64,000 nucleotides of DNA from positions 84,568,001 to 84,632,000 of the forward strand of contig NC_043001.1 of NCBI RefSeq assembly GCF_006345805.1. Direction: 5' to 3'. Below are positions 1,996 through 32,525 of this stretch, piece by piece. Made by a program: the position numbers and the translations under genes. A model generated the notes under the pieces. It had not been told where the DNA came from. It worked only from the letters and a program-made list of their open reading frames with translations, and did not search any database. The DNA comes from Octopus sinensis (taxonomy: Eukaryota). Each line of letters opens with the position of its first letter. Positions within the stretch are counted from its first letter, which is position 1.

Positions 1996-2011
1996 TATAT
2001 ATATATATATA

Positions 2012-2763
2012 TTTAAAAATTAAGGGTAGAAATTGATATTAGTCAATTAAAACCAGTGGTCTAGCACATTAAAAAGAATCCGAAGATTAAAATATTTATA
2101 TATACCAATTAAGGACTGAACACGAAAAGGTGGACAGTCAACATGCTAGATATAGACGTCAAATCGCCATTCTCCACAAGGATTATGCTCTCAAATAAAA
2201 ATAAAATCAGCAAGCACGACCTAAAGCAATGGATGAGACAAAAGAAATATACTAAATGGAATAATTACCTACGTACTGCAGTTTCAGCTATTAATATCAC
2301 AAGGATATCTGTAGCTTCATCAGCGTAGTTTGTTATGAGCATAATATGCTGTACTAGATGAAAAACGGTACCGGAGTCCCGCATGCAAAAAGTACAACCT
2401 ATTACGTTCGGATGTATCTTCTCGAATGCCTCTACTTTTGGCGCGCTGATAATCGAAAAACTAGCTTGCAGCCAATAATTGCAGCAGTCAATTTATCGGT
2501 TTGAGAACATATATTTCATATTTAAAAATTAAGGGTAGAAATTGATATTAGTCAATTAAAACCAGTGGTCTAGCACATTAAAAAGAATCCGAAGATTAAA
2601 AAATTTATATATACCAATTAAGGACTGAACACGAAAAGGTGGACAGTCAACATGCTAGATATAGACGTCAAATCGCCATTCTCCACAAGGATTATGTTCT
2701 CAAATAAAAATAAAATTCAGCACGACCTAAAGCAATGGATGAGACAAAAGAAATATACTAAAT
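2012..2763 (-). mobile_element. Retrozyme-like non-coding element, ~1.5 units of a 509-nt repeat, (TA)n-flanked
   Basis: 2012-2257 is repeated at 2521-2763, and an intact HHR lies between the two copies. Confidence 0.8.
2269..2328 (-). ncRNA. Type-I hammerhead ribozyme, intact core
   Basis: Minus strand reads ctacg-CUGAUGA-agcta...tagct-GAAAC-ugca-GUA^cgtag. Predicted cleavage is between 2274 and 2273. Helix III ACUGCAGU is a palindrome. Confidence 0.92.
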
Positions 2764-2800
2764 ATATATATAATATATTATATATATATATATATATATA

Positions 2801-12926: not shown

Positions 12927-14216
12927 CGAGGGGCGTTCAATAAGTAATGCCTCTGACCCACTTGCAGTTGTTTGATCTAGCTGGAATTTTGCATGTGCAA
13001 TTATTTATATCTCTATAGATTAAGTGGCAAATTACAGCTCTGAACTATTTGTGGTTTCTGATTTACAGGTGTTTGAACTGAGTCAAGTGTGAAATGGAGC
13101 ATGTTGAGTGTCGAGCAGTGATCCGGTTTTTGTATTTGAAAGGACGCACACCACGAGAGACTTTTGATGAAATGAAAGTAACTTATGGTGATGATGCCCC
13201 ATCATATGACCTTGTAAAACGCTGGCCTCGTGAATTCAAACATGGTCGGAACTCTGTGGAAACAGCTCCCAGATCTGGTCGCCCCCTTCTGCCATTGATG
13301 AGGCATCTGTCTGTCAAGTTGAGGCTGCCATTTTGGAAGATCGACGCATAATTATTCGCCAAATAGCCAATGAGGTCAAGATTAGTACCGGGTCTGTGGA
13401 AACTATCATTCATGACCATTTGCATATGCAAAAGGTGTCTGCCAGATGGATTCCCAGATTGCTCACACCTTTCCAGAAGCAAGAACGCGTCGATTGCTCG
13501 AGGATGAATTTGGAGATGTGCCAAGAAGATGAGTCAAAATTTTTCAAAAGACTGATTGCATAGGATAAAACCTGGGTCCATCACTATGATCCAGAGACCA
13601 AAGCCCAGTCAATGCAGTGGAAGCACCATGACTCACCTCCTCCAAAGAAGGCAAGGGTGCTGCCCTCCGCTGGCAAGGTCATGCTTACAGTCTTCTGGGA
13701 CCAGGACGGAGTAGTGAAGACAGATTTCCTGGCAAAGGGTGCCACAATTACAGGAGTCTATTATGCTTCACTTTTGAGGAAATTAAGAGAAGCTATAAAA
13801 ATCAAGAGGCGGGGCAAGATCAGCAAAGGCATCCTCCTCCTGCAGGACAACACTCCGATCCACAACTCGCGTGTTGCCAGATCAGAAGCACAGGCGTGCG
13901 GCTATGAACTCATCCCCCATCCCCCAACTCTCCTGACCTTGCACCTCTGATTTTCACCTCTTCCCAGCCATGAAGTTGTTTTTGAAAAGAAAACGTTTCC
14001 CAGATGATGCAGCCTTGATTTCTGAAGTCACGTCGTGGTTGGAGGACCAAGCTGGGGTCTTCTACAAAAACGGTCTTCAGAGCTGCATCAAACGATGGGA
14101 GAAATGCGTAACTCTGGGTGGTTCCTATGTAGAAAAAGACTAATAACTGTTCCAAGTTTCGTTGCTCTACTGCTATGGGAAGTGTGTCAGGGGCATTACT
14201 TATTGAACGCCCCTCG
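12927..14216 (+). mobile_element. Full-length mariner (D,D34D; irritans/Himar-like) with TIRs and TA target-site duplication
   Basis: TA-cgaggggcgttcaataagtaatgcc at the left end and ggcattacttattgaacgcccctcg-TA at the right end; 1290 bp. Confidence 0.95.
13094..14143 (+). pseudogene. Mariner transposase pseudogene
   Basis: RAVIRFLYLKG, ARWIPRLL, DKTWVHHYDPE, LLQDNTPIH and SPDLAPSDFHLFP motifs. Frameshifts near 13290 and 13925, and an in-frame TAG at 13561. Confidence 0.92.
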
Positions 14217-15604: not shown

Positions 15605-16683
15605 TGTGCGTGTCTCTTAATGCTTGTCCCCAATGACAGCTTGACAACCGGTGTTAGTTTGTTTACATTTCCGTAACTTAGCTGTTCTCTCAAAGTAGAC
15701 CGATAGAATATGTACCAGGCTTTTGAAAAATAGGTACGGGGGTCGATGTGTTTGACTAAACCCTTCAAAAGCAATACCTCTTCATGGTCGCAGTCTAATG
15801 AATGAAACAAGTAAAAGATAAAAGATATGTAATTATCTGTTCCTTTATTGGGAGAATCAACAAAAAAAAAGGGATCCATCCAGTGAGAGGCAAGGCGCGC
15901 TGTATAAGGTTGTATAAGGTGCCATATATTTTCAGGTTGAATGATTGCCTTAAAATACACGTCACACTACACAACATAAATACAATATAAATTTGCATTT
16001 GTAGATCCTTCATATAGATACTCGTTTGTGTTCATTATACACTTCAATTACAAGCTGAAACATATGACATATAAATGGAAATTATTAGTATTTCGAGACC
16101 GGCTTGATAATAAGAGCTACTGAATTACTAAATGATGCTAAAAGTCTTTTAGTATAAGCAATGTAAATTTAATAGAAAATAATGAACCTTTGTTTAATGA
16201 ATTTATTCAAATAAGAAAAGGTGTTACTGTAATAAAGTTAATGATAATTAACATTATAACTGACATTCGAGGGTTCCAGTTGCTCCAATTAATGTGAAAT
16301 TAACGTGCAAGTAACAGAGCACAACAGAGATACGCCTACCCTTAACGTAGTTCTCAGGGCGATTCATAGTGACACAAAATGTGAAACGGCTGGGCCTTTG
16401 AAATACGGGAATTACTCCCTTTTGCCTGTTGAGTAGACTGGAGCAACGTGAAATAAGATGTCTTGCTCAAGGATACAGTACGCTGCCAGATATCGAATGC
16501 ACGCCCTTACGATCGTTAGCCGATTACCCTAACCACTTAGCCACGCGTCTGTATTACCATCAGAGAGATAAAGTAATCACTAGCGCAAACATACGGAAAA
16601 TATAAAGTGCTGACTATATATTTCAGTATCCGATTAGTATTTGCGAGGGGAGGTCATCGCTCCCATTTCTAGCCTTACGTGAT

Positions 16684-16730
16684 ACACACAGACTCGAGTT
16701 TCTGGGTGGTTACCCGTCCTCAGCGTGTGT
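16684..16730 (-). ncRNA. Type-I hammerhead, intact core
   Basis: acacacg-CUGAGGA-cgggt(aacc)accca-GAAAC-ucga-GUC^tgtgtgt. Helix III ACUCGAGU is a palindrome. Confidence 0.85.
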
Positions 16731-17041
16731 TAATCATAAGCTAGTGATGAAAATTCATTCCACTCGCAAAATACTATATGCTTTTTTCCAGTGACAAACT
16801 ATCGCTGATCTCGAAAAAGCAGAAATAAGCTATATAAAATCTCAGAGCCAGATGTAAGCAGTAGCAGTACGGAATCGTAACATATAATTGCCAACCAAGT
16901 GTGGCGTCCCATACTGGACAGTGCTACTGACGTTTATAGCCCCAGGAAGGCATCTCCCCCAGCTGGCTAACGACACACATTCTGTGTCCGATTTGTATTT
17001 GCAAGGGGAGGTCATCACTCCCATATTTAGCCTTACGTAAT

Positions 17042-17088
17042 ACACACGGACTCGAGTTTCTGGGTAGTTGCCCGTCATCATCGTGTGT
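17042..17088 (-). ncRNA. Hammerhead copy with C3A core mutation
   Basis: acacacg-AUGAUGA-cgggc..accca-GAAACUCGAGUC-cgtgtgt. Confidence 0.65.
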
Positions 17089-17176
17089 TAACCACAAGCT
17101 TGAGATGAAAACTCATTCCACCCGCAAAATACTATCTGCTTTTTCCAGCGACAAACTGTCACTGATCTCGATTAAG

Positions 17177-17220
17177 ACACGCTGAGGACGGGTAACCACC
17201 CAGAGACTCGAGCCCGTGTG
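17177..17220 (+). ncRNA. Hammerhead copy (inverted arm), mutated
   Basis: acacg-CTGAGGA-cgggtaaccaccca-GAGAC-tcga-GCC-cgtgt. Both GAAA and the GUC site are altered. Confidence 0.6.
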
Positions 17221-17621
17221 TATCACTTAAGGCTAGAGATGGGAGCGATGACCTCCCCTCGCAAATATTAATCGGATACAGAATGTGCGTCGTTAGACAG
17301 CTGGAGGTGATGTCTTCCTGGGGTTATAAACGTCAGTAGAACTGTCCTGTACAGGACGCCACAGTTGATTGGCAATTATATGTTACGATTCTCCGTACTG
17401 CTACTGTTCATATCTCGCTCAGAGATTTAATATAGCTTATTTCTCCATAAATTTCAACTTCTTATTCTCATAACCGACTCGAACAAGGTTCTTATAGAGA
17501 ATTTAGAATATAATTCAAAGAAGTTCTTTACTTCAACAATCGCATATATACAATCATTTTAGTAGCTGGATTTTACATAAACACCCACACAAGCACAAAC
17601 ACACGCACACAGAAATCTCAT

Positions 17622-17657
<36 letters not shown>

Positions 17658-18153
17658 GCACACAAGTTCACATGCATGCGCGCATGCACACATACACATT
17701 TGTTTTCGGAGATACCATTCACATGATATCACAGGTGCACACACCCATACCACAGTCATACGCATTGTTTTGTTAGAAAGTTCAATAGTTTCTCCATAAA
17801 AATTCCAAGTAAAACTGACATTTTTAAAATGAAAACATAGTAAATGTCATTTATAAAATACACTAGACTATGCTACGCTATTGTTTTCACTTCGAATTTA
17901 AATCAACCTATACCCTATAAACTTACTTATCCTTTTTTTCTTCCTTCCTTCCTAATCTTCTCTTTCAACAACCCTTCAAGTAACATATCTGTTTAATGTG
18001 TCCCTTGGTTGTTAAACGTTTATCTAGTTTATTATCTCGAAATGTTCCATTTTACTGAAATTTTCAACAAATTATAAAATCTCATATAATTCGCATTACT
18101 TTCTGGTTCATATAATTATTTAATTGAACGACACGCATTCATTCCAAAGTATC

Positions 18154-18188
<35 letters not shown>

Positions 18189-18308
18189 ACAATCAAGGAA
18201 CGGCCATAATAGGCCATTCACCCACTAGAAATAACAGCCAAAGCTTCAACCGCAAATAAAAATCAATTCCGTAAACAGGAGAAAATTTAAAAAAACATTT
18301 ACCCTGTA

Positions 18309-18415
18309 ATTTCTTATACGATGCACCGTTTCATCTGCTGTTTAATGGTAAACTAACCTGATTAAATTAAATCAGGCCAATCTTCCATAGGCCCTCAGAT
18401 TCTTCAGTAAGAAAT
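18309..18415 (-). ncRNA. Type-I hammerhead with expanded helix II (inverted copy)
   Basis: Reverse complement of 18856-18962. Confidence 0.88.
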
Positions 18416-18855
18416 AGCCACAAGTCGGAACAGATATTTTCACGAGGCATTTCCGACCCTGCCGACAGGGTAAATGTTTTTTAAAATTTTCTCCTGTTTA
18501 CGGAATTGATTTTTATTTGCGGTTGAAGCTTTGGCTGTTATTTCTAGTGGGTGAATGGCCTATTATGGCCGTTCCTTGATTGTTGATGTTGAACTTAAAA
18601 ATGGTCTATGACTATTTAATTTTTTCCCACTAGGCCGCTGGTGGCAAAAGAATTCTACAAAATTTTTTTTTTGCCACCCTATATTGATTAATTATGAATT
18701 TTCTGGTTAATTCCGTAATGGAATCGACGGCTTATATATATTTATTTGCTGCCGATAAATTTGGCGCGAGTGCGATGATTTGAAAATTTTAGGTCAGATA
18801 TTACCTTGGCAGGGTCGGAAATGCCTCGTGAAAATATCTGTTCCGACTTGTGGCT

Positions 18856-18962
18856 ATTTCTTACTGAAGAATCTGAGGGCCTATGGAAGATTGGCCTGAT
18901 TTAATTTAATCAGGTTAGTTTACCATTAAACAGCAGATGAAACGGTGCATCGTATAAGAAAT
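18856..18962 (+). ncRNA. Type-I hammerhead with 68-nt branched helix II
   Basis: atttctta-CTGAAGA-atctg...cagat-GAAAC-ggtgcatc-GTA^taagaaat, with an 8-bp stem I. Predicted cut at 18954/18955. Confidence 0.9.
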
Positions 18963-19353
18963 TACAGGGTAAATGTTTTTTTAAATTTTCTCCTGTTTAC
19001 GGAATTGATTTTTATTTGCGGTTGAAGCTTTGGCTGTTATTTCTAGTGGGTGAATGGCCTATTATGGCCGTTCCTTGATTGTTGATGTTGAACTTAAAAA
19101 TGGTCTATGACTATTTAATTTTTTCCCACTAGGCCGCTGGTGGCAAAAGAATTCTACAAAATTTTTTTTTTGCCACCCTATATTGATTAATTATGAATTT
19201 TCTGGTTAATTCCGTAATGGAATCGACGGCTTATATATATTTATTTGCTGCCGATAAATTGGCGCGAGTGCGATGATTTGAAAATTTTAGGTCAGATATT
19301 ACCTTGGCAGGGTCGGAAATGCCTCGTGAAAATATCTGTTCCGACTTGTGGCT

Positions 19354-19460
19354 ATTTCTTACTGAAGAATCTGAGGGCCTATGGAAGATTGGCCTGATTT
19401 AATTTAATCAGGTTAGTTTACCATTAAACAGCAGATGAAACGGTGCATCGTATAAGAAAT
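19354..19460 (+). ncRNA. Type-I hammerhead with 68-nt branched helix II (second tandem copy)
   Basis: Same sequence as 18856-18962, 498 nt downstream. Predicted cut at 19452/19453. Confidence 0.9.
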
Positions 19461-19685
19461 TACAGGGTAAATGTTTTTTTAAATTTTCTCTGTTTACGGA
19501 ATTGATTTTTATTTGCGGTTGAAGCTTTGGCTGTTATTTCTAGTGGGTGAATGGCCTATTATGGCCGTTCCTTGATTGTTGATGTTGAACTTAAAAATGG
19601 TCTATGACTATTTAATTTTTTCCCACTAGACCGCTGGTGGCAAAAGAATTCTACAAAATTTTTTTTTTTGCCACCCTATATTGAT

Positions 19686-19736
<51 letters not shown>

Positions 19737-20006: not shown

Positions 20007-20101
20007 GATAGGTCACCTGGTGTAATCGGTATCACATTTAGTCGCGTAATAAAGAGATGTGAGTTCGAATCCCACGTGTCCGGGTAACCTATCTTTTTTT
20101 T
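20007..20101 (+). other. tRNA-like Pol III unit (A box, B box, oligo-T terminator); tRNA pseudogene or SINE head
   Basis: TGGTGTAATCGG (A box), GAGTTCGAATCC (B box) and a T-run at 20094-20101. Confidence 0.55.
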
Positions 20102-27173: not shown

Positions 27174-29164
27174 ATGGCCACTGGTCACCACGATGCTGAG
27201 GTACAAGTCAAGCGTGACGCAGAGACAAAAAAACAGGATGCCCTGTTAGCATACGCTGAACCTGACAACAACACCACCACACCACCATCAGCATCGACAA
27301 CAGCAACAACTATAAAACAAAGGTCGTAAGGCCAAGCACCGTCACCACCATCAACACCGACACCACCACCATAGCAGCTTCTGCTACGACAACTGCTTCC
27401 TCTACCAACAACAACAAAACCAAGGTCACCGACACCCTCCTTGACAACGCTTACGACGTTGAGTTCCCCACACTGCTTTTACCACAATTTCATAAAGCAG
27501 GGGAAATGGGGGAAAACAACACGAACGCAAATGTGAGCATGAACGCTAACATCGCGACCTCCACTCAAAAACTGGTAAACAACCCGACTTCACAGTTTAC
27601 TACTACTACATCACCACCACAAACATCACCACCACCACCACCACCTCCACAAAAAACAATTTCGCGGAAGCCATACGACCGAAAAGAAGAATCTTAAAAT
27701 TTACTCACCAACAAATACAAGACATAAAGTCCTTGCTCACCAAAGAAGGCGACACAATACATTTAAATATTCCACGGAACATCATAGAAGAAACACAAAA
27801 GAAGACCATCATTTACAGAATACTCAACACCAAAACAAAAAGACCAGAAAGCCTACCTAAAGAAAAATTGAAAAGTGCCTCTCTTCCTGTGGAAATTCCG
27901 AAATTATGTGAATTGGGGAAGTAAATTTGCTACCGTGCAAGTTCGCTTCCATACGGAAGAACTAGCAAAAAGTTTTCAACCCTTACTCTGCGCACAGACC
28001 AGGTAACAATGGTACCTAGCTACCTGGGCGCAGAATTACGAAAGTCACAATAAATAATGTGCCGCCAATGGTGAATACCCAGTGGCTGGTATCGGCCATC
28101 TGCTTCGATATAGAAGAAGCAGATATTTTAGAAACAGCTGACATTCCAGAGGAAAGCTGGACTGGTAAAAAACTCGAAATATTGCTTCAAATTTCCCAAG
28201 AAGCAATAAACAATTTACCAGCCTGTGTTCAACTGGCAAAAGACCAAAAATTGTATGTAGTGGTGGAGGGCAGGAGACCAAGATGCTATTTATGCAACAG
28301 TGAGGCACACCTTAGATACGAGTGCCCAACTGCTGTTTCAGAAATAGGCAACAGCAACCACTCCCCAAACCTGGAAGGAAATCCCTGCTACCCACACCTC
28401 CTTCAACCCAAAAGACAGGAAAAGCAGCGGACGATACAAAAACTGTTTCCCCCTCACCAACCACATCACCAAAAAGAAAATTACCTCTGACATCGCAACC
28501 AACAAAAGAAGCAACATCACCACCAACATCAAAAGACAGACCAACACCAACACCAGCACCAAGAACAACAACCAAAAAAACAAATAACAATGACGAAAAG
28601 ACAAATTCTGCCCCTAACACCCCAACAACACAAACACCACACAAAACAACAACACCTTCTACAAACACACATATAGATCCAAACGCATTGCCATTACCCT
28701 CTTCTGATTCGGACTCGTCGTCCAACGACGAAAGTTCGGCGGAATGGTAAATAGCCACAGGGGGTAAAAGGAAAAGACCCAAAAAAAACAAAGAAAACGC
28801 AACCAAAGCAGGGAGATACCTGAACCCTGAAAGCTCCATACACAACCAAACAAGCACCAACGCCACAAAAACACACACAATGCTATCAGCGATAGACACA
28901 AAAGACTCCAAACTAATGGAGTACATCACAGTCTACACAAACATCTGTGAAGATGACTTCAAAACTAACAACCATCCACGCACTACACCACCCAAACACA
29001 TCAAAATACTACACATCACACAAACACAACACCACAAACTCAAAGCCCTCTTCCCAAATGCTGTAGGGGGTTTCCAAAAATATCTCCCCCCAAAACTTTA
29101 TAAAAACCTCCTCCAAGACACATCAAAGAACGAGGAAGCCAAAACTTTCGACACAAGTAAGTAA
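27174..29164 (+). pseudogene. LINE ORF1 (gag-like) pseudogene
   Basis: RCYLCNSEAHLRYEC (CX2CX4HX4C) at ~28284-28325, a Thr/Pro-rich low-complexity tail, and multiple frameshifts and stops. Confidence 0.75.
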
Positions 29165-29214
29165 CTCTCTGTACTTTCCTTTTTGTGTTTTAAAGCACAC
29201 ACCCCAATAGAATC

Positions 29215-32200
29215 ATGGTCGAGATTGGTTGTGTGAATGCGCGTGGCTTGGGGTCTCCTTGGAAACAAGGATACCTCCTAAATGACATCAAGTCACACGA
29301 TTTGGGAATCATAGCCATAAGTGAGACCAGACTCCACGAGCCACGGGCCCTAAATTCCATGTTTGGCGGACAGTTTAATATTTATTTTGCTCCCTGTCTG
29401 CCGAGGATGGGCGGTAGTGGCACCACGGTACTTTTTTACAAGAGCCTGGATCTGGAAGTCAAGACGATATTCGTAGACCCGGAGGGTAGACTGGTCGTTC
29501 TGGATGTCGACGGCAGCAATGGGTGCGCTTTTCGACTCGTATCAGTCTACGCACCGCCTTTAACAGGTCGGCCGGATTTCTTTCGACGTCTAGAAGTATT
29601 CCTGGGAACGTCTCGTCCTTTACTTTTAGTGGGGGATTGGAATGCTACCTTGGACACGCATCTAGACTCTGTGGGGAGAGACAAAAACAGAAGGGGATGC
29701 AAATGCCTCAGAGACCTGCTCAGACGATTTCAACTGTCTGACAGGTACCGACTCGACCACCCAAATGCACCAACATGGACATGGAGCAACCGCAGTGGGT
29801 CGTCGAGATCGTATCTAGATAGGATACTGTGTAGGACAGTAGACAAGGATAACTTAGGATGTCCACAATTCCATACAGTCGTCTACACGGATCACAAATT
29901 CGTGACGTGTACGCTAGACTTAGATAAGGCACATAGACAGGGTCCTGGTTACTGGAAACTGAATGCATCATTCCCGTACAGACAAGTTTTCAGAGACAGA
30001 ATCAACACGTTAGTAAAAAGGGCTTTAACGGGAGTCATTGTCAACAACAAATGGTGGTTCGCCCTCAAGAGAGCAGTAAAAGCGGAAGCAATAAGATATA
30101 GCAAGGCACTAGCCGTAGATAGAAGTAGAGTAGAGGGTGAGTTAGTTAAGAAGTTAGAAGAGGCAATAAGAAGCGGCATCACACCCGACGTTTTGGCAGC
30201 AAGGTTGGCCCTTGACCAACACTTCAACGCCAAACACGAAGGGTGTGCTGTCAGGGCTAGGATGCGGGCTCTAAGGATGGAAGGTGTTGGAGCCGTGAGG
30301 GAGGCCCGGGTGGCGGAGGCGCAACAGGGCAACAAAGCCACCATTCGGTCTCTGGTAGATTAACAAGGGCGCGAATTGCTCGAGCCCAGCAAGATGTGCG
30401 AGGCATTTCAGCGGCACTTTGCCCGACTGTACGGGACGAGTGGTGAGCGTGAACGCAGGGTGGACTTCAGTGCCTACCTGCACAGCCTACCACGACTCTC
30501 GGCAAGAGAGGCAGAGTGCTGCGAAGGTGCCATCACGGCGGCGGATGTGCAGGACGCGATGGCAGAATGCTCGAGAGACAAATCGCCGGGTTTGGATGGT
30601 CTGCCCTACGAGTTTTACAATTGTATGCCAGACTTGTTTGGAGACGTCTTGGCAGCGGTATACTGCACCAATCACTCTGCTCAATGTAGACCTGAAAATT
30701 TTGACAAAGGTGTTAGTCAAGAGGTTGGCGCTTGTCATCGAGAAACTGGTCGATAACGCACAAACGTGCGCCGTGCCGGGCCGGAGCATCCATGACAACC
30801 TCCATCTGATGCGCTACATCATAGACAGGGTAGTTAACGAACCTGGCATGGGTGGGGCCCTGATCAACTTGTATCAATCGAAAGCCTTCGATAGGGTAGA
30901 CCATCGATACTTGGAGGCAGTCCTGAGAGCGGCTGGTTTCGGTCCCGTCTTCCGCGGCTGGATAGCTGCCTTGTACAGAGGTGTCCGTTCGGTAATTCGC
31001 GTAAATGGACATCTATCGAGACCTTTCGACATTGCACGTTCGGTCCGTCAGGGATGCCCCCTCTCGGCGCTTCTATACGTATTGACTTGAGCCACTACTG
31101 CGGAAGCTGGCGACTCTGAGGGGCATCCCGCGAGAATTGGGATGCGGGACGAGCGTGTCTGCATACGCGGACGACGCCACCGTCATAGTGTCAAGCCACG
31201 AGCACGAAGACTACGAAGCGGTGACAGGAGCAAAAATCAACCGGGAAAAGTCAGTGGGCTTGCGGCTAGGCACCTGGAGAAGCAAGCCCATGCCGTCCAC
31301 CAGTACCTCCGTCGTGGGACGCTGGACAGACGGCCAGGTTGAGTTGCTCGGGGTCTGGTTCGGTCCGGACCTCCAAATGGAGAAGAACTGGAACGAGATA
31401 ACGAGTAGGGTGGTCACTCTCGCCCAGCAATGGGCCGAGAGGAAACTGTCCCTAAAAGGTCGGGCGGAGGTGGCGAACGCGTACATCGCGTCCATCATCT
31501 ACTACCGCCTGACCGTCGTGCCTTGTCCCGACCCTACCATCACCAAACTAGAACGCATCCTCTTCCGCTTCTTGTGGAAAGGATGCGTCCCGATGGTCAG
31601 GCGATCCATTTGCTGTCAACACCCGTTAAAAGGAGGGCTGGGCATGCCGTGGTTGATGATGCGCAGGCACGCGCTGAGACTGCGACATCTCCGGCTCTAT
31701 GTAGACGACGGTAAACAGGTGTGGTCGCCGTTTGTGAGGCACGCATTCCCGCAACTCGTCTCCATGACCGAACTGCAGTCGTGGATCAAAAAGAGGCCGA
31801 GGAAGGGCGAATGGCACCGCGAGTGTCGCGTTGCTCTCAAGCAACTCTGCCGTCCCGGGTCGACCTTGAGTGACTTCAACACAACCAAAGCATTCTATAG
31901 GGGATTAGCGGAGGGGAGGTACGACGACGATCGCGGGGCGAACCTGGGCGTCGACGAGGAATACCTGACCCGCCTGTTTCAAACGACTTTCGGCCCGGGA
32001 CCTATGGACAACTTTCAGAGATCCCTGGCCTGGCAGTGCTACCGAGAAGCGCTACTCGTTCGGGATAAGCTCTATAGGCATGGCTCGAGAAACACGGGGC
32101 CGACCTGCCCGAGATGCGGGCAGAGCGACGAAACCGCTCTGCACGCAATCGTGCAGTGTCCAGCAATTTCCCACCTGTGGGCTTATGTCGAACGACTGCT

Positions 32201-32525
32201 GTCACGTGTGGGACGTGTCGGTTTATCAGCCGAGTCTATCGTTAATATCGTCACGCCTCCTTCCTTCAAACGGGAAGGAAGAGCTATTTTTATCATACTT
32301 GTGGCTATGGCGAAAGAATGTATCTGGTGGACGCGCCTGAAAGGATTAGAGACAAACACTTTCCTCTCTGGTCAATCTCTCATCAACTTCTTCAAGTATC
32401 ACTTGAAGAGGAAAGTGAGAGTAGAGAGGCAAGTTTTGTCTAGTGAATGTTTTAAAAAAAGATGGGTGAATGTAGCAAGGATGGCACGTATGAATGACGA
32501 AGCCACCTTGACTATGATTCTATGA
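29215..32525 (+). pseudogene. LINE ORF2 (APE endonuclease, reverse transcriptase, C-terminal Zn finger), disrupted
   Basis: NARGL, SETRL, YAP, GDWNA, YLDRI, TDHK, KSPGLDG, KAFDRVDH, VRQGCPLS, AYADD and CPRC..ETALHAIVQC motifs. Stops at 30361 and 31088, and an internal deletion or frameshift near 30665. Confidence 0.93.

Follow-up and report, generated by a model that had tools for sequence, protein, structure and literature searches.

In the 64-kb stretch of Octopus sinensis DNA analysed here (the window), a repeated hammerhead element spans positions 18185-19692 with a (TA)n tract on either side (Table 1). A descriptor scan over both strands of the 64 kb returned four type I hammerhead-like matches, three of which fall inside the element. 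The scan confirmed the preliminary description of these hammerhead ribozymes (HHRs) as identical, with an 8-bp helix I (ATTTCTTA/TAAGAAAT) and a perfect core (CUGAAGA...GAAA...UA); all three also have a 5-bp basal helix II and a helix II of 68 nt in total. The core CUGANGA / GAAA / UH is arranged around three helices with helix I open, as in type I hammerheads. Three copies in a tandem element had been described. Three copies there are, but only two lie in tandem, on the plus strand, where the predicted cuts are separated by the 498 nt originally measured, and the third is inverted, on the minus strand. The direct arm has a truncated 5' end that meets the inverted arm head-to-head, with a single nucleotide (18464) in between, and neighbouring units at the locus differ by one substitution and one indel across 499 nt. 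Neither the element nor the 64-kb window contains an ORF with reverse transcriptase (RT) and GIY-YIG domains, and the element is not an autonomous Penelope-like element (PLE).

Table 1. Features of the hammerhead element and of the surrounding window (position, coordinates in the window; nt, position in the monomer).
Feature	Position	Strand	Remarks
Second hammerhead repeat	2007..2790	-	In (TA)n; type I, C3 at 2323, predicted cut 2274; 31-nt helix II, ~506-nt period, 1.5 units
Mariner-type transposase relic	13234..13950	+	
Other head-to-head inverted repeat	16622..17391		220-nt arms, 87% complementary; also a 358-nt direct repeat
(TA)n target, left flank	18150..18186	.	(TA)n runs on both sides in 36/39 loci by eye
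Inverted arm	18185..18463	-	279 nt; monomer nt 352-498 + 1-132; 3' end at putative start site S1 (nt 132), 5' end truncated
Type I hammerhead copy 3	18309..18419	-	Same sequence as copies 1 and 2; C3 at 18407, predicted cut after 18317
Direct arm	18465..19692	+	2.5 units: nt 10-498, full monomer (nt 1-498), nt 1-~237/240; 3' end at putative start site S2
Type I hammerhead copy 1	18852..18962	+	C3 at 18864, predicted cut 18954/18955; helix III with palindromic UGCA loop
Copy 1 helix I bulge GGCU	18852..18855	+	
Copy 1 helix I	18856-18863/18955-18962	+	
Copy 1 core	18864-18870 and 18939-18942	+	
Copy 1 helix II, 68 nt	18871..18938	+	5-bp base, 7x7 internal loop, 44-nt unbranched apical hairpin 18883-18926
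Copy 1 GGCC in helix II internal loop	18878..18881	+	
Cut-to-cut monomer, 498 nt	18955..19452	+	36% GC
S1 module	19052..19086	+	GC-rich hairpin (nt 98-119), 13 nt, then fixed end S1 (nt 132)
Type I hammerhead copy 2	19350..19460	+	C3 at 19362, predicted cut 19452/19453
S2 module	19635..19692	+	Hairpin GGUGGC...GCCACC, ~15 nt, then fixed end S2 (nt ~237)
(TA)n target, right flank	19689..19735	.	
tRNA-like stretch	20011..20082	+	Barely above Rfam cut-off; probably a SINE head
Broken L1/Tx1-type LINE	27300..32525	+	AP endonuclease and zf-RVT domains

The locus is a single insertion from a non-coding family of hammerhead repeats that has hundreds of copies in the genome. When the 2.72-Gb host assembly was searched with the monomer, 39 of 1044 candidate regions were scored and yielded 257 matches, the full-length matches listed being 92-100% identical, and a 30-nt HHR piece had 644 exact matches in the host genome against 0 for the control. 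The loci are scattered over many chromosomes, in (TA)n, and pieces of the family are visible in four public contig-type sequencing runs; the runs listed as containing it include no RNA data set. Full family units have a median length of 492 nt (range 480-511, 121 units), 498 nt being the length of the window copy only. Sister families at ~70-80% identity (L116, L146 and others) have cut-to-cut monomers of 456-492 nt; the group of sister families spans 456-500 nt and is inserted in (TA)n, and a 15-nt motif common to them has 3825 exact matches (control, 0). Tandem units with one type I HHR each, at least two of them consecutive, in a non-coding, low-GC, dispersed and multi-copy repeat are the features of a non-LTR retrozyme, and the original assignment to a young tandem hammerhead retrozyme is supported. 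Its recent origin had been read from the near identity of the units. Within an array this near identity is set at insertion, so youth is better judged from the mean substitution between loci, which at 1.3% also points to a young family. The belief that 498 nt exceeds the monomers of known animal retrozymes was rejected, since the size lies inside the ranges in the literature (repeat sizes of 150-450 bp in the accessible text of PMC7229834; consensus lengths of 51-972 bp in that of bioRxiv 10.64898/2026.07.22.740005). A literature search, with Repbase/Dfam, supplements and subscription journals outside its scope, found no description of the family or of a 60-70-nt helix II in animal retrozymes; the family consensus may sit under another name in repeat libraries or supplements.

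Other hammerhead repeats were seen in the host genome. The second one in the window has short motifs in common with the main family, and its alignment to that family scores 41 against a shuffle maximum of 48. HHR families outside the main group, with helix II spans of 29-58 nt, were found at L103:5765-6860, L104:351, L106:6916 and L043:2227, with more at L138:2280, L072:2621 and L114:915, and a long helix II is recurrent in the genome; the L103 family has the same inverted two-arm plan. At L146, L172 and L116, elements from different families are neighbours within a single (TA)n tract, as would be expected if all target the same microsatellite. Locus L116 was considered as an autonomous parent and rejected, its HHR element being a separate sister-family insertion beyond the TA run.

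The 68-nt helix II had been drawn as branched and interpreted as a possible multibranched protein-binding or regulatory module. The complementary words of the branched model are present in the window copy, and one of them, cctgatt/aatcagg, is indeed paired, at the tip of a 14+4-bp stem; gttta/taaac and ggcc/ggcc are not, each having a pair probability of 0.000 in the window copy. When this copy is folded, the unbranched helix II reaches -25.6 kcal/mol vs -11.8 and -13.2 kcal/mol for two branched models, which were rejected as 12-14 kcal/mol worse. A single-hairpin helix II, with an insert of 58-74 nt, is the minimum free energy (MFE) structure in 25/25 representative HHRs, with a branched share of the ensemble of at most 0.004 in every one; the 25 were hand-picked from 139 distinct sequences plus further copies, with near-duplicates and indel-rich copies left out, and two indel-rich family copies outside the 25 folded branched. 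Across the representatives ggcc/ggcc is fully formable in 2/25 and a hairpin of at least 5 bp occupies the gttta/taaac slot in 4/25. In an alignment of eight whole monomers, four pairs of the unbranched stem are changed on both sides. We accordingly give hardly any credence to a multibranched module, although the insert length and AU-rich tip retained across families allow for some role of the hairpin itself.

Covariation among copies, which had been suggested as a check, is found in helices I-III and in the unbranched stem, and the branched insert is not kept. Helices I, II and III covary across the 25 representatives, the core is conserved with the exception of U4C in some, and the 11-nt core is intact in 164/171 family units; helix covariation together with the retained core suggests that the ribozyme is under selection. 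For these comparisons anchored counts were used, as MAFFT/RNAalifold misaligned the gapped stems of the 25 HHRs and recovered 13 pairs. Two observations count against the predicted active ribozyme: the first helix II pair is mismatched in 7/25 relatives (and is A-U rather than G-C in the window copy), and the active fold lies 1.5 kcal/mol above the local MFE and is not fully formed in global folds. The palindromic helix III permits double-hammerhead pairing, which the two-copy MFE structure adopts and for which the dimeric hammerhead concept offers a precedent (PMC4209133, accessible text). At the Rfam gathering score the element has no hammerhead match, and in a search at E<=5 no hammerhead stood among the best 150 of 194 matches, where microsatellite-driven miRNA noise appeared. 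Such a miss is expected because helix II is long, and the earlier suspicion that this HHR could evade standard searches has proved right.

The helix I bulge GGCU and the GGCC of the helix II internal loop are complementary sequences. Among the 25 HHRs the free position has C-G in 14 cases, U-A in 9, U-G in 2 and a mismatch in 0; the counting was anchored on GG and CC, and those two G-C pairs are not independent. A fourth pair holds in 19/25 and fails in 6/25. On a tree built with the two positions masked there are five state changes, at least three of them forced by well-supported branches. In the RNAalifold alternative the same helix II loop pairs with a downstream GGGU, with one-sided changes only, and in the local fold part of this GGGU region lengthens helix I. 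These sequence comparisons make a pseudoknot-like pairing between the helix II internal loop and the helix I bulge likely, and the ribozyme would be a canonical type I motif in which loop 2 is opened to an internal loop with a hairpin stacked above it.

The whole monomer is highly structured relative to shuffles (z -6.19) and contains no ORF of at least 100 aa. In the consensus structure of eight whole monomers, 10/72 pairs are changed on both sides, four of them in the apical stem, and 0/500 shuffles reached 10 two-sided changes; the counted structure came from the consensus of the same alignment, and the test leans toward that structure. Two further monomer hairpins had been pointed out, of which ggtggcaaaa/ttttgccacc is conserved with compensatory change and gtcggaa/ttccgac is present in the window copy and absent from the sister families. 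The idea that transcription through the array releases a 498-nt monomer is weakened at this locus. In the predicted fold of a transcript begun upstream of 18185 the inverted arm, which is antisense to the first plus-strand hammerhead, traps it by pairing, so that one cut and no monomer are predicted from read-through; release of a monomer would need an internal start or another locus.

Two features had escaped the preliminary description, namely the likely bulge/loop pairing and a two-armed architecture, with two apparent start sites, resembling that of PLEs. In a sample of 39 loci (the window and its 38 best matches), 30 are two-armed and head-to-head and nine are single-armed. Among the two-armed loci, 29/30 combine an arm that stops at nt ~132 (S1) with one that stops at nt 235-244 (S2); ends are paired like with like in 0/30, and one locus has a cut-off end. 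Had the arms chosen independently, the chance of 29 S1+S2 pairings would be 0.5^29. S1 and S2 lie ~105 nt apart, an interval that forms a 'tail', and the 5' ends of the arms are random. The same two ends recur in the sister families, ~126-137 and 213-239 nt past the cut. Each of the two is 13-15 nt 3' of a GC-rich hairpin and is preceded by a similar CCU..AUUG..AU word, and S1 and S2 may well be two RT start sites. At 14 further junctions taken in positional order, 5' ends are scattered, and in 13 of them the arms meet with an offset of -5 to +3 nt. In the best-match loci 5' ends seemed to accumulate at the HHR cut site (11/66 ends), a potential footprint of in vivo cleavage, but at the positional-order junctions 0/28 ends did so, and the pattern was dismissed as selection bias; a second accumulation at nt 207-221 was not replicated (11/66 vs 1/28 ends). 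At L228 the inversion junction has captured 158 nt of unrelated sequence, and L045 is a duplicated two-armed insertion. The insertions have an inverted 5'-truncated copy, a tail at one end and a microsatellite target, as expected of a non-autonomous PLE; truncated copies in inverted orientation, one-ended tails and a preference for (TA)n are PLE hallmarks (accessible text of PMC8557442 and PMC3846280). According to the accessible text of PMC11167929, purified PLE protein starts reverse transcription in vitro at two internal positions, which delimit the tail, and elongates both strands of the target; the start sites of the anole PLE are alike between strands, which counts against the model proposed below.

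The host genome has 5029 GIY-YIG candidates, of which 147 were listed and 50 loci examined. Several copies carry an intact RT and GIY-YIG ORF of 775-781 aa with a CX4CxxC linker, which PMC8557442 (accessible text) assigns to Neptune/Nematis types. In the larger PLE family, copies are 99% alike and run into (TA)n at two sites separated by 33-36 nt. When the 3' UTRs of the 50 GIY-YIG loci were compared with the monomer by BLAST and local alignment, no sequence in common was found; this result and the PLE tail of 33-36 nt, rather than ~105 nt, count against the model proposed below. This young (TA)n-targeting PLE family is the best candidate for a helper, by timing and target only. The young PLE family at L101-L105 and L116:2850-9117 has an upstream 479-aa ORF1 with no Pfam match and a 781-aa RT-GIY-YIG ORF, and its 3' region contains a hammerhead-like motif with a degenerate core (UUGAUAA). 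A second PLE family (L106:2560-5569, minus strand; 775 aa, 47% identical to the first) has a short-helix-II hammerhead, read by eye, in its 3' UTR. For Octopus vulgaris a published study reports PLE families with recent activity, and its accessible text mentions no retrozyme class (PMC13282606).

We consider it probable, with considerable room for doubt, that the element is a non-autonomous PLE, or non-LTR retrozyme, whose circular monomer is copied from two sites. Family RNA would be cut by the hammerhead to a monomer of ~490 nt, as the predicted cut sites imply. Judging from the covariation, the ribozyme should cut as a monomer or, via its palindromic helix III, as a dimer, and the monomers would then probably be ligated into circles, as in other animal retrozymes, for which circular monomers have been demonstrated (PMC7229834, accessible text). 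A Penelope-type RT/GIY-YIG protein supplied in trans would nick both (TA)n strands, each nicked 3' end would be extended on the same RNA, one from S1 and the other from S2, and both cDNAs would circle the template for a variable number of turns before joining head-to-head. In this scheme mobilisation by a helper is very probable, and if it is granted, the circular-template step is in turn likely. Ten variants, each fixed in a single locus, are present in both its arms (8 loci); substitution is 0.77% between opposite arms (88 pairs) vs 1.32% between loci (8175 pairs), and the longest arms have 14.6, 10.3 and 9.8 units. The shared private variants fit a single template copied over and over from the two sites, as would happen on a circle. 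Some variants are confined to subsets of units, and a single circle accounts for these only with the help of mutation or conversion at a later stage, or of errors in the assembly.

The same helper and start sites might instead have used an uncut or partly cut linear multimer of the donor array, with the ribozyme acting late or rarely and circles as a side product. Published results on the anole PLE lend weight to this alternative and count against a cleavage and circle model: HHR cleavage is dispensable for insertion, mutation of the HHR leaves insertion in vitro normal, and uncut RNA serves as the principal substrate (PMC11167929, accessible text). A further point against the cleavage and circle model is that 8/9 Xenopus retrozyme dimers were uncleaved in vitro (10.64898/2026.07.22.740005, accessible text). 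A homogeneous donor array would likewise yield shared variants, and three cross-arm variants are in register (L041, L037, L058). However, in-register sharing between arms is no more than expected (3/18 pairs vs 2.5, with L045 and L055 excluded as complex), and random 5' truncation would shrink the arrays in each generation, yet arms of 10-14 units exist. Each sister family moreover has homogeneous arrays of its own, and diverged families have preserved the catalytic fold through compensatory changes. We regard a linear multimer as a possible but unlikely template.

Expansion in place by unequal crossover of a minisatellite derived from a PLE terminal repeat, a route discussed in 10.64898/2026.07.22.740005 (accessible text), would suit the homogeneity of units within loci and the recurrence of some variants in subsets of units. 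It accords poorly with dispersed loci that each lie in (TA)n, have an individual inversion junction and share one pair of 3' ends, and both arms can be multi-unit with shared private variants. At the loci examined no PLE ORF adjoins an arm, ORF matches lying only across the TA run or elsewhere in the flank, and this origin seems very improbable. It is also barely conceivable that tandem and inversion are assembly artefacts, even though the public contigs listed include none spanning the inversion junction and the units contain homopolymer indels typical of long-read consensus, since the same two-armed plan recurs across the sampled loci with differing junction positions, the further junctions are nearly all tight, and the S1/S2 rule extends to the sister families and agrees with the published PLE signature. 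Returning to the circular template, a more detailed version is possible, though less likely than not: the circle could carry a pair of hairpin-plus-AU start modules, each serving one of the two subunits of a dimeric Penelope protein, and both nicked target strands could be extended at once by rolling-circle reverse transcription of a single circle.

The family resembles animal non-LTR retrozymes (PMC7229834; 10.64898/2026.07.22.740005) in its non-coding tandems with one type I HHR per unit, a GC content below 45-50%, arrays from dimers to multimers, a size within the 51-972 bp range and co-occurrence with PLEs. It differs from them in a helix II of 58-74 nt vs ~4 bp plus loop, in a helix III of 4 bp, and in two-armed insertions with two fixed ends, which the accessible text of those sources does not describe; among the 50 GIY-YIG loci no sequence link to a helper pLTR was found. 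With EN+ PLEs (Neptune/Naiad, PMC8557442 and PMC3846280; Poseidon PAc, PMC11167929; accessible text in each case) it has in common partial tandems, an inverted 5'-truncated copy, an optional tail at one end, (TA)n targeting and an HHR upstream of two internal 3' ends. Unlike these elements it has no ORF, a tail of ~100-105 nt that is three times longer than their 30-40 bp, arms of up to 14 whole units and a canonical rather than minimal HHR; its strict one-site-per-arm rule (29/30) also sets it apart from PAc, which has no strand difference in vitro. The likely bulge/loop contact is comparable to that of pseudoknotted hammerheads, in which Watson-Crick pairing between stem I and stem II, present in ~40% of the set of Perreault et al. 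(2011; PMC3088659, accessible text), replaces non-canonical contacts. Unlike that set, the ribozyme here is a repetitive animal type I HHR with a likely contact of 3-4 bp between a helix I bulge and the internal loop of a long helix II, and the accessible text does not describe a 40-50-nt helix II hairpin; PMC13725137 (accessible text) terms 6-8 bp a long helix II.

The retrozyme class and the monomer size are thus known, and what is new is the long unbranched helix II with its likely pseudoknot and the apparent architecture of two start sites on one template. Retrozyme mobilisation and the origin of PLE tails and inversions are stated as open in the accessible text of 10.64898/2026.07.22.740005 and PMC8557442. 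With hundreds of young insertions, a strict one-site-per-arm rule and a small covarying template, questions of mobilisation become testable, using a 490-nt RNA and an intact endogenous PLE protein. Long-helix-II hammerheads are common in the host genome and missed by Rfam, and counts of animal retrozymes obtained with standard descriptors are likely too low. If the two-module circle is true, hammerhead loop 2 would tolerate a 20-50-nt hairpin through a bulge-loop pseudoknot, the arrays would be a genome-wide fossil record of double-ended rolling-circle TPRT, and retrozyme tandems, PLE inversions and PLE tails would share one mechanism.
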